DNA of 54,106 nucleotides from an uncultured archaeon (GTDB taxonomy: Archaea; Aenigmatarchaeota; Aenigmatarchaeia; QMZP01): contig CAYGVS010000004.1 in NCBI GenBank assembly GCA_964353635.1, positions 1 through 54,106 on the forward strand, read 5' to 3'. Numbering within the stretch: the first letter of the stretch is position 1; each line of letters opens with the position of its first letter. Below are positions 35,063-36,317 of the stretch, one piece after another. The notes beneath the pieces were generated by a model. That model did not search any database, had not been told where the DNA came from, and saw nothing but the letters and a program-made list of their open reading frames with translations. The position numbers and the translations under genes were made by a program.

Positions 35063-35198
35063 GCCTCAGTAGCTCAGCAGGTTCGGAAGTTTGAACGTGA
35101 CCGAGTCACGTTCTTTCGATGAGAAGAGCACTCGGCTGTTAACCTTGCAAGAAAGGGCTGATACCGAGTGGTCGAAGGTTCGAGTCCTTCCTGAGGCG
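35063..35198 (+). tRNA. tRNA-Asn(GTT) with an about 41-nt D-loop insertion (about 35083-35124) and a 21-nt 37/38 intron (35142-35162)
   Basis: Acceptor GCCTCAG/CTGAGGC+G, D stem GCTC/GAGC, anticodon stem CTCGG/CCGAG with CT-GTT-AA loop, T arm GAAGG-TTCGAGT-CCTTC; BHB at the 37/38 intron. Confidence 0.92.
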
Positions 35199-35219
35199 CT
35201 AACAGAATAAGGTGTTTCC

Positions 35220-35492
35220 ATGGACATTAGGATGGAGTTGATATCAAACTGCTTCGATATCAGGGGATTCAACAAAAGGTGCAATTTCCATGGCTGCGCA
35301 AGGGCTCCTGAAAAGGAAGCCCTCATAATGGAGAATGACCTGAAGAGACAGCAGAAAAAGGAGCTCGTTTCCCTTTATTTCTGCAGCAAGCACTTCGACA
35401 TGTGTGTGAAGGATTTATTAAACCAACTGAACAAAATATGTGAGAGCGGCAAGAACGTGTACATGGAAAGCTACGAGGCAGGAGCGAAATAA
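35220..35492 (+). CDS. Small Cys-rich hypothetical protein, possible Zn binder
   Basis: GGTG RBS upstream; CNFHGC...FCSKH pattern; fills the gap between two tRNAs. Confidence 0.65.
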   Translation: MDIRMELISNCFDIRGFNKRCNFHGCARAPEKEALIMENDLKRQQKKELVSLYFCSKHFDMCVKDLLNQLNKICESGKNVYMESYEAGAK

Positions 35493-35542
35493 AAGAAAGC
35501 ACACCTAAAAAGCAGCAATAGATGGGACGACGGAAATGTCGC

Positions 35543-35719
35543 GGGAACCTTAAGGGGATTGAAGGCGACGAGAGTAGCCTTCGGGTCAATAAAGGCCGCA
35601 TCGGTAGCTCAGTCCGGGAGAGCACACGGCTGAAGATCGATTGACGACTTGCATGGGTTTATCAAGTCTTCTTTCTATTTGCGACCGTGGTGTCGTGGGT
35701 TCAAATCCCACTCGTCCCA
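35543..35719 (+). tRNA. tRNA-Phe(GAA) with a 55-nt acceptor-stem intron at 4/5 (35547-35601) and a 48-nt 37/38 intron (35636-35683)
   Basis: Spliced product GGGA|CGG TA GCTC AGTCCGGGA GAGC A CACGG CTGAAG|A CCGTG GTGTC GTGGG TTCAAAT CCCAC TCGTCCC A (74 nt); both introns sit in BHB-type motifs. Confidence 0.9.
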
Positions 35720-35738
35720 TTCCATTGGAATTGGTTAT

Positions 35739-36317
35739 ATGGCAAAAAGCACGCAGGCGAAAGAGAAGAATGAAGTTCGTAGTATCTACAAGCCTGCGGA
35801 GTGCAGGCTCCTGGAGAACAAGCTCTTTGTTCCAAAGGGTTTTGATGAGCTGCTCCAAAGGTCTTACGGAAAACATATGGAAGGGAGATTGGAGCTGGCT
35901 TTCGTGGAGGCTCTCTACCTCCTTGAGAAAGGCAGGATAGCTGTCAAGAAGTCCGGGAAGAAGATGGGCTTCCAGGAGCTCATGGAGTTTGGGATGGAGA
36001 GGGACAAGAGGCTGCATGAGAAGTATGTCGTCTACAAGGACATTAGGGAGAGGGGACTGGTCGCCAAGACAGGTTTCAAGTTCGGATGTGATTTCAGGGT
36101 TTACCAGCGGGGAGTCGGCGTCAAGAAGGGTCCAAAGGAAGCCTCGGAGCACACGAAATGGATTGTTTACACAGTCCCTGAGGATTATGCGTGCTCCTTC
36201 GCTGAGCTCTCAAGGGCTGTGAGGCTTGCCCATTCTATAAGGGCCAGGATGCTCTGGGCGATAGTGGATAATGAGGACGATGTCACCTATTTCGAGGTCG
36301 TGAGGATAAAGCCTTAA
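35739..36317 (+). CDS. endA: tRNA-splicing endonuclease, single-unit (alpha4-like) subunit
   Basis: YGK..EG.LEL..VEALYL, VYKD.RERG..KTG.KFG.DFRVY, EH, R.AHS.R, AIVD..DV.Y....KP. Confidence 0.95.
   Translation: MAKSTQAKEKNEVRSIYKPAECRLLENKLFVPKGFDELLQRSYGKHMEGRLELAFVEALYLLEKGRIAVKKSGKKMGFQELMEFGMERDKRLHEKYVVYKDIRERGLVAKTGFKFGCDFRVYQRGVGVKKGPKEASEHTKWIVYTVPEDYACSFAELSRAVRLAHSIRARMLWAIVDNEDDVTYFEVVRIKP

Follow-up and report, generated by a model that had tools for sequence, protein, structure and literature searches.

How can a tRNA be folded, cut and, above all, re-ligated when its first exon is only four nucleotides long? Introns in the acceptor stem of tRNAs are known, and the relevant passages of the literature that we found do not address these steps for a precursor with a 4-nt first exon. 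The question is raised by a tRNA-Phe(GAA) gene on a 54,106-nt stretch of DNA (hereafter the window, to which all coordinates refer) from a genome of 1.03 Mb (48 contigs, 48% G+C, completeness 88%) assigned to Candidatus Aenigmatarchaeota, a DPANN phylum. An earlier note on this DNA had proposed that the leader of the pre-tRNA is a two-state RNA switch, in which a decoy strand complementary to the 3′ acceptor strand alternates with a hairpin capped by GAAA. Here, we describe the anatomy of the gene and its leader, compare it with the genes of relatives, and weigh the explanations that the leader admits.

A tRNA-Phe gene with a four-nucleotide first exon

The gene occupies positions 35543-35719 of the forward strand and consists of three exons and two introns. 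Exon 1 (35543..35546), delimited by bulge-helix-bulge (BHB) geometry, comprises only tRNA positions 1-4, GGGA. Together with CGG, which starts at 35602, it yields the sequence GGGACGG that pairs in 7/7 positions with 35712-18. Exon 2 (35602..35635) carries positions 5-37, including the D arm and the anticodon GAA at 35632-34, while exon 3 (35684..35719) carries positions 38-73 with the T arm (35695-35711), the 3′ acceptor strand (35712-18) and the discriminator A (35719). Exons 2 and 3 are separated by an anticodon-loop intron (35636..35683) of 48 nt if it is placed at 37/38; a cut one base to either side would give the identical mature sequence. On a DNA contig of a relative, nine other letters replace 35637-35683 in this intron. 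The assignment as tRNA-Phe rests on a covariance-model score above threshold, the anticodon GAA and A73 at 35719, which we take to be an identity element.

The unusual 5′ end was not recovered by standard gene finding. The Rfam model RF00005 placed a tRNA at 35598-35719 (34.3 bits, cut-off 29) and took the intron bases 35598-35601 for positions 1-4 of tRNA-Phe. ARAGORN called zero tRNAs in the window when run without its intron mode; with introns allowed, it missed tRNA-Phe and called a neighbouring tRNA ‘Val(aac)’. Only seven tRNAs passed the Rfam threshold in this genome of 88% completeness. Among its 21 Rfam tRNA candidates, 13 of which were inspected with their flanks while the remainder show the full 7-nt 5′ strand, no intron in the 5′ acceptor strand was found besides that of tRNA-Phe. 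Gene finders that are blind to BHB motifs built from leader sequence, or to duplicate strands of the kind described below, misplace the 5′ ends of such genes, as the Rfam placement at 35598-35601 illustrates.

The intron that interrupts the acceptor stem (35547..35601, forward strand, 55 nt) lies between positions 4 and 5 in a strict hBHBh′ motif, TGTC-GCGG-(GA/A)-CCTT ... AAGG-CCGC-(AT/C)-GGTA, where the slash marks the border of exon and intron. The outer helix h is formed by TGTC (35537-40) with GGTA (35603-06; 4 bp), the central helix H by GCGG (35541-44) with CCGC (35596-99; 4/4 pairs) and the inner helix h′ by CCTT (35548-51) with AAGG (35592-95; 4 bp). The two bulges, GA/A (35545-47) and AT/C (35600-02), comprise 3 nt each on opposite strands. 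Judged by its sequence, the 4/5 intron is thus an hBHBh′ intron, with the bulges, the 4-bp helix and the flanking helices, and its predicted removal leaves a canonical tRNA. As the first exon measures only 4 nt, the motif has to recruit leader bases, namely 35537..35542, of which TGTC forms the outer helix with 35603-06 and GC the first half of the central helix. With six bases of the motif located in the leader, removal of the leader cannot precede splicing.

Homologous 4/5 introns of 15-28 nt were found in seven relatives. Across these and the window, a complete BHB motif was present at the 4/5 site in 8/8 loci: the central helix had 4/4 pairs in seven loci and 3/4 in one, with ATGG/CCAT and GTGG/CCAT as compensatory variants, and the flanking helices ranged from 1 to 4 (h) and from 1 to 7 (h′). 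A ninth locus, on a metagenome contig (L144), possesses a longer 4/5 intron with a hairpin insert of its own. The window likewise carries an insert in the loop of the intron, a degenerate hairpin repeat (GAAGGCGAC-GAGA-GTAGCCTTC; 35561..35582, forward strand) that recurs genome-wide. It is missing from G004, a genome of the same genus whose 4/5 intron has 16 nt.

A duplicate of the 5′ acceptor strand in the leader

The earlier note had reported a perfect 9-bp complement between leader and 3′ acceptor strand, and this was borne out: read in reverse, ATGGGACGA (35522-35530) complements TCGTCCCAT (35712-35720) without a mismatch, a target that comprises the 3′ acceptor strand 66-72 (35712-18), A73 (35719) and the base with which the trailer opens. 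With a G-U pair at 35521/35721, the run grows to 10. For a 10-nt target and a 60-nt leader, a Watson-Crick match of 9 nt has a chance expectation of about 4e-4 (104 placements × 4^-9). The element (35522..35530, forward strand) consists of AT, corresponding to the -2/-1 context of a tRNA gene, followed by GGGACGA, and the leader of the window reads GGGACGACG-GAAA-TGTCGC-GGGA/intron/CGGTA. Sequence comparison identifies the putative decoy as what is left of a duplication of tRNA positions 1-9. Positions 1′-7′ of this copy are able to pair with the 3′ acceptor strand, and its positions 5′-9′ with the leader strand that otherwise pairs real positions 6-9 in the outer helix of the BHB. Furthermore, the AT before the copy corresponds to the AT before G1 in many uninterrupted tRNA-Phe genes, where it pairs with A73 and U74, so that the copy resembles a former or ancestral gene start. 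The earlier note had missed both the duplication of positions 1-9 and the possible tethering of the 4-nt exon that is discussed below. We also considered a short ORF from the ATG at 35522, which was rejected as it is not conserved (G004 reads ATG GGA CGG TAG).

The arrangement was then sought in 47 genomes of the family, 91 of the order, 80 endA-linked loci of named assemblies and one metagenome scan. A tRNA-Phe gene with the 4/5 intron occurred at nine distinct loci (five genera, two families, one metagenome contig). Four of these are of the genus type (the window, G004 and G001 from the same genus, and the metagenome locus L144), three represent other genera of the family (G016, G009 and G020) and two belong to another family (G087 and G056). 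Indeed, an upstream copy was present in 9/9 loci, with its first base 13-21 nt ahead of the real G1. Eight of these loci were scored alongside controls; with G-U allowed, their leaders reached longest runs of 7-10 against the 3′ strand, and a run of at least 7 was found in 0/50 distinct uninterrupted tRNA-Phe genes of relatives (longest 3-6). Pairs were counted in the register chosen by best pairing, with MAFFT alignments leaving the copies out of register, and the uninterrupted class served as the unbiased control. Intron and copy were both absent from G002, which belongs to the genus of the window, and from G068, which belongs to the genus of G016. Within the source genome, the copy is known from tRNA-Phe alone among the tRNAs detectable there.

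The copies also follow their acceptor stems. Positions 1′-6′ pair with 72-67 in 54/54 cells, 50 of them Watson-Crick and four G-U. Four acceptor types, GGGACG, GGGGTG, GGGACA and GGAGCG, are each matched by the respective copy, and compensatory changes between copy and 3′ strand were observed at pairs 3:70, 4:69, 5:68 and 6:67. For instance, pairs 4:69 and 5:68 distinguish G004 from G001 in spite of their identical 16-nt intron, with the copy tracking both changes. The leader of G004, which retains a full copy of positions 1-9, reads GGGACGGTA-GTAA-TACCGC-GGGA/16 nt/CGATA, or over a longer span ATGGGACGGTA-GTAA-TACCGC-GGGA/16-nt intron/CGATAGCTCAG; that of G001 reads ATGGGGTG(TG)GTA-GCAA-TACCGC-GGGG/same intron as G004/TGGTAGC. 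A near-identical strain, represented by DNA contigs from two runs of other studies, shows two differences in the intron (35555 and 35584) with copy and hairpin unchanged; these contigs contribute no covariation. The expectation that the complementary element is conserved in relatives retaining the 4/5 intron was thus confirmed, with covariation with the acceptor stem in addition. Since relatives retain the copy whenever they retain the 4/5 intron, the copy probably helps the splicing of the tiny exon.

Could the copy instead be a neutral relic, a scar left when a duplication or insertion gave rise to the 4/5 intron, marking the old 5′ end and having no role in the RNA? Several observations speak for such a history. 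The -2/-1 context of the copy looks ancestral, positions 7′-9′ have decayed, and in Caldiarchaeum, according to the relevant passage of PMC3293823, a newly acquired intron is accompanied by direct repeats of a tRNA's 5′ portion. Moreover, the distribution is patchy, and recombination between the repeats of positions 5-9 would delete intron and copy together, a joint loss that could by itself explain their co-occurrence. A neutral scar should, however, decay evenly. Instead, 0/54 cells were unpaired at 1′-6′, where copy and real strand differ in only 3/54 cells, all three of them wobble-compatible with the 3′ strand, against 13/27 differing cells at positions 7-9 (Fisher 1.6e-5 with kinship ignored, a value that overstates the case as the loci are kin and represent some five or six independent lineages). 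The tracking of two acceptor pair changes beside the same intron in G004 and G001, the persistence of the arrangement in two families, the short distance between the repeats (only 6-14 nt) and the absence of a recombinase or mobile element likewise speak against neutrality. A duplication scar explains the origin of the copy but neither its uneven decay nor its tracking of acceptor changes, and we regard a purely neutral relic as unlikely. We place roughly even odds on the reading that the copy is a relic duplicate of positions 1-9 that selection has maintained as a tether and a substitute for the 5′ acceptor strand.

Such a role would require that the copy be transcribed. Upstream, a conserved ORF of 90 aa without a Pfam family (35220..35492, forward strand) stops short of the pairing run at 35521 by 28 nt and of 35522 by 29 nt. 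Downstream, the gene for the tRNA-splicing endonuclease, endA (35739..36317, forward strand; 192 aa; PF01974, 2.4e-27; PF02778, 2.5e-14), starts 19 nt past tRNA-Phe in the window and after a gap of 1 nt in G004, G001 and G020. A candidate for the RNase P RNA scored 50.5 bits, below the cut-off of 84. In the window, copy and real G1 each have an A/T-rich box at a suitable distance; the second, CTAAAAAG, is located 38 nt before the real G1 and could start transcription inside or after the copy. When a position-weight matrix was trained on 49 uninterrupted genes, no TATA box emerged at a constant spacing. In G004, the stop codon of an ORF lies 5 nt before the copy, and in seven uninterrupted loci an ORF stop and G1 are no more than about 2 nt apart (-1 to 2). 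This proximity of the ORF stops to the copy or to G1 favours read-through transcription from upstream and argues for transcripts that begin further upstream.

Folding models and the proposed switch

Folding was examined with nearest-neighbour models, which leave proteins, tertiary contacts and the removal of other introns outside. As the earlier note had expected of the precursor, the unconstrained minimum free energy (MFE) fold of 35515-35725 holds the helix of leader and 3′ strand together with the BHB central helix. In constrained ensembles, the copy helix beat the real, interrupted acceptor by 10.6-15.3 kcal/mol in 8/8 loci before splicing. The notion that the decoy thereby frees the exon for the BHB held for some loci only: in three of the eight, the modelled central helix needed an intact copy, its probability dropping from 0.67 to 0.02, from 0.74 to 0.01 and from 0.99 to 0.19 when the copy was mutated in silico, whereas in the other five it was either near zero with or without the copy (four loci) or equal both ways (L017). 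In cofolding of the cleavage products, the 5′ piece bound the tRNA body at -5.0 to -14.4 kcal/mol with the copy intact and at +0.7 to -2.9 kcal/mol with the copy mutated. The model therefore favours the view that the copy supplies nearly all binding of the cut micro-exon to the tRNA body. As the four exon bases alone are too few to hold the 5′ product, a tether role for the copy suggests itself.

We thus propose the following course of maturation. The first six bases of the copy, together with its -1/-2 context, would serve as a stand-in for the 5′ acceptor strand and, in the precursor, would form a helix with the 3′ acceptor strand that also takes in the discriminator and the first base of the trailer. 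The 3′ strand would thereby be diverted from the real positions 1-2 and 6-9, which would then be available for pairing with the leader (35537-42) and the intron in the BHB. After cleavage, the surrogate may keep the 5′ product, made up of leader and 4-nt exon, attached to the tRNA body until A4 and C5 are joined by the ligase. Once ligated, the continuous real 5′ strand would displace the copy, and RNase P would then cut before G35543. In the genus of the window, a GNRA hairpin might re-pair copy positions 5′-9′ with the former BHB strand and so make the strand exchange cheaper. Release of the copy could be driven by an irreversible cut of RNase P at a minor conformer, or by a first cut at the copy, as we infer. 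More tentatively, at somewhat below even odds, we suggest that a cis-encoded surrogate acceptor strand is an archaeal solution to a ‘micro-exon’ problem: it would build a tRNA-like acceptor helix in the precursor and hold the exon during cleavage and joining, and would then be displaced and discarded by RNase P.

The two-state switch of the earlier note differs from this proposal in that the decoy would only free the 4-nt exon, and the hairpin would form spontaneously after splicing, releasing the 3′ strand to the real acceptor stem for RNase P. The hairpin itself (35528..35541, forward strand) can form as stated, from CGACG (35528-32), GAAA (35533-36) and TGTCG (35537-41), with four Watson-Crick pairs and one G-U pair and an MFE of -4.9 kcal/mol. 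Its 5′ arm corresponds to copy positions 5′-9′ and its 3′ arm to the leader strand of the BHB. Copy helix and hairpin share bases 35528-30, hairpin and BHB share 35537-41, and the helices accordingly exclude each other and the BHB, as a switch would demand. A GNRA-capped hairpin of -4.9 to -6.3 kcal/mol was found in 4/4 genus-type sequences, with the loops GAAA, GTAA, GCAA and GTAA; the counterparts of the window hairpin are CGGTA-GTAA-TACCG, TGGTA-GCAA-TACCG and TGGTA-GTAA-TACCG. In the window, both partners of two of these pairs have been replaced, a compensatory exchange in a single lineage. The BHB strand has changed from TACC to TGTC there, which retains Watson-Crick pairing with the diverged copy and wobble pairing with real G6-A9. 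This change fits selection on both partners, as far as can be judged from one lineage.

Beyond the genus type, the hairpin was not a constant feature. A comparable structure was absent in 5/9 loci (0.0 kcal/mol in G016 and G009, -1.7 kcal/mol in G020, other pairing in G087 and G056), so the conservation anticipated for relatives extends to the genus type, with its GNRA loop and two compensatory pairs, but not to the other five loci. With the hairpin missing or different in these, a two-state switch is not the conserved core of the arrangement. In G001, moreover, the hairpin does not overlap the copy helix. A copy of positions 5-9 automatically complements the BHB strand that pairs real 6-9, and the hairpin potential is therefore in part a by-product of the duplication.

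The energetics of splicing spoke on both sides. In-silico removal of the intron changed the modelled balance by 5.9 to 13.9 kcal/mol in favour of the real acceptor, as expected for a switch triggered by splicing. The idea that the leader then snaps into the hairpin found no support in the model, though: the copy helix remained favoured in 6/8 loci (by 0.4 to 6.0 kcal/mol), in the window by 6.0 kcal/mol even with the hairpin allowed, while the real acceptor was ahead in 2/8, the gap spanning -6.0 to +1.0 kcal/mol. Release of the copy hence needs a factor outside the model. What stands of the two-state proposal is the copy helix, conserved in 9/9 loci with covariation; the hairpin is confined to 4/9 loci and spontaneous release is not predicted in 6/8, and we consider the switch as originally formulated doubtful, and more so than the neutral relic. 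A self-acting switch would apply to one genus at best. In our reading of a selected surrogate strand, the hairpin was added within a single genus, where it makes the subsequent exchange of strands easier.

A further explanation takes the copy as an alternative or true first exon. Seven relatives carry introns at position 9/10 that are similar to the 4/5 intron at their 3′ end (AAGG(A)CCGC A); a second copy of the 5′ strand lies directly upstream in only 3/7 of them, which weighs against our own reading. It is very improbable that a larger intron, from copy 9′ to real 9, is removed at a relaxed motif like these 9/10 introns, for although a cut after 9′ would be flanked by 4 bp of outer helix, with 2-3/4 pairs in the central helix, in the window, G004 and G001, and would give a normal tRNA-Phe in G004, the product would carry C8 G9 in place of U8 A9 in the window and A8 A9 in G020, the inner helix is absent (h′ 0-1) and the central helix has 0/4 pairs in G016, G009, G087 and G056. 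Cuts after copy positions 4′-8′ were rejected too, as the outer and inner flanking helices are missing at most sites and a complete motif occurred in 0/8 loci. According to inspection by hand, the spliced product holds no further BHB through which the 19 nt separating copy and real strand could be excised, these two being direct and not inverted repeats; nor would EndA remove the leader via a BHB of leader and trailer, whose helix, examined by hand, has no bulges.

Relation to known systems

If the surrogate-strand reading is true, the copy represents a cis-acting aid to tRNA maturation of a new kind and an example of a duplication scar recruited for function. It would be the intramolecular counterpart of the leader pairing of split tRNAs, and thereby a mechanistic link between intron-bearing and split tRNAs. 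It would also impose a fixed order, with splicing before 5′ maturation and possibly two successive cuts by RNase P. The adjacent endA, maybe co-transcribed, would then sit downstream of the most demanding substrate of its own enzyme.

Bistable leaders, such as attenuators and the expression platforms of riboswitches, offer one strand the choice of two partners. In archaeal rRNA precursors, leader and trailer form processing stems that close the precursor and themselves carry BHB motifs. The tRNA-Phe leader resembles both, having one strand with two possible partners and a leader-trailer helix that closes the precursor. Unlike in bistable leaders, no ligand or transcription decision is involved, and the trigger would be the removal of an intron. 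Unlike the rRNA processing stems, the helix of leader and 3′ strand is free of bulges.

Introns at non-canonical positions of archaeal tRNAs are cut at BHB motifs, as set out in the relevant passages of PMC4090602 and PMC4033280. The 4/5 intron of the window conforms to this class in its strict hBHBh′ motif, and the EndA gene adjoins; like other acceptor-stem introns, it forces the precursor out of the cloverleaf. It differs from the reviewed introns in its 4-nt first exon, in a motif built with leader bases and in a second conserved leader element that may stand in for the 5′ acceptor strand, an element that these passages of the two reviews do not mention. Likewise, a leader copy of the acceptor strand is not described in the pertinent passages of the open full-text literature (PMC4090602, PMC4033280, PMC4390854, PMC3218864, PMC5829648, PMC12397907 and PMC3293823), while subscription papers, e.g. 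the original surveys of Thermoproteales introns, and supplements could hold one.

In the split and tri-split tRNAs of Nanoarchaeum and Caldivirga, complementary leaders and trailers hold the pieces together for EndA and the ligase, according to the corresponding passages of PMC4090602, PMC4033280 and PMC4390854. Here, too, pairing outside the mature sequence would hold two pieces of RNA through cutting and joining, as the cofolding model suggests. Unlike in split tRNAs, the pieces lie on one strand within about 200 nt, presumably in one transcript, and no joining in trans is involved. Furthermore, the tether pairs with a part of the mature tRNA, the 3′ acceptor strand, rather than with discarded sequence, and would thus have to be displaced later by the real strand and removed by RNase P.

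With regard to origin, the relevant passage of PMC3293823 describes a 5′ fragment of tRNA-Thr upstream of an intron-bearing tRNA-Thr gene in Caldiarchaeum subterraneum. That repeat comprises 27 nt and lies 1.8 kb away, across an insertion that bears a recombinase; the passage proposes no RNA function for it. In both cases, sequence from a tRNA's 5′ portion is directly repeated upstream of a gene that gained an intron, and the Caldiarchaeum tRNA-Thr provides a plausible model for the origin of the copy. The copy described here differs from that fragment in its length of 9 nt, its distance of 6-14 nt, the absence of a mobile element and the conserved pairing with the 3′ strand. By analogy, the nearest parallels to the tRNA-Phe leader would be the leader pairing of split tRNAs, for the tether, and the tRNA-Thr 5′ fragment of Caldiarchaeum, for the duplicate.

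Linkage of tRNA-Phe and endA

The tRNA-splicing endonuclease gene endA (window 35739-36317) directly follows tRNA-Phe, and the same linkage was found at further endA-linked loci of relatives (L002, L005, L021 and others). Among 80 endA loci, it is kept through much of the phylum, with tRNA-Phe upstream in many. The spacing between the two genes amounts to 19 nt in the window and to 1 nt in two genomes of the same genus (G004, G001) and one of another genus of the family (G020); in these three, the endA ATG comes right after the base that follows the tRNA-Phe discriminator. This linkage suggests an mRNA-tRNA-mRNA co-transcript, whose tRNA processing would leave an endA message with almost no leader. 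Within this group, the endA-linked locus L096 belongs to an assembly labeled as a Planctomycetota bacterium, probably a binning error.

A hairpin repeat and the tRNA set

A pattern count across the 1.03 Mb genome (G000) returned 200 strand hits for a hairpin repeat, GAAGGYR-(4-16 nt)-YRCCTTC, corresponding to about 100 sites, most of which match on both strands; the reversed sequence gave 6 hits. Examples are located on G000 contigs C6 (6397-6418, 6514-6535, 6611-6632), C8 (19786-19807) and C43 (1331-1352). The window's own contig holds no match to the pattern, and a degenerate copy lies at window 35561-35582. Flanking sequence of the form GATT...GAAATC is frequent around the repeat and could close an internal loop resembling a kink-turn. 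Copies were observed inside tRNA introns and also immediately 5′ of the 5′ ends of several tRNAs.

Nearly all of the tRNAs called in this genome contain introns, one to three each and many in the T loop. A second tRNA of the window (35063-35199) was assigned as Asn(GTT) from its anticodon loop CTGTTAA; it has its D and anticodon loops each interrupted by an insert, was called Val(aac) by ARAGORN and scored only 17.2 bits in Rfam. Only seven tRNAs exceeded the Rfam threshold and ARAGORN reported 12 in a genome rated 88% complete; many of the tRNA genes are either missing from the assembly or interrupted too heavily for standard tools to recognize. The archaeal RNase P RNA gave a full-length but weak match (C2:884-1197; 50.5 bits versus a cut-off of 84).

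Uninterrupted and 9/10-intron tRNA-Phe genes

In uninterrupted tRNA-Phe genes, the two leader bases preceding G1 are often AT (e.g., L004, L010, L012, L013, L023, L041). These can pair with discriminator A73 and the first trailer base, extending the precursor acceptor helix to 9-10 bp. At seven such loci, an upstream ORF ends with its stop codon no more than about 2 nt from G1 (-1 to 2).

Other tRNA-Phe genes carry an intron between positions 9 and 10: L022 (G008), L020 (G017), L036 (G010), L028 (G034), L052 (G072), L071 and L072. Their junctions, marked by slashes, read GGGACGGTA/A...CCGC AA/GCTCAG, with a central helix built with tRNA positions 4-7 and an outer helix pairing G1-G3 with C11-C13. 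In L028 and L072 the 5′ strand is repeated in tandem, the second copy lying just 2-3 nt upstream. Because the 3′ ends of the 9/10 intron and the 4/5 intron resemble each other in sequence, the two forms are probably related.
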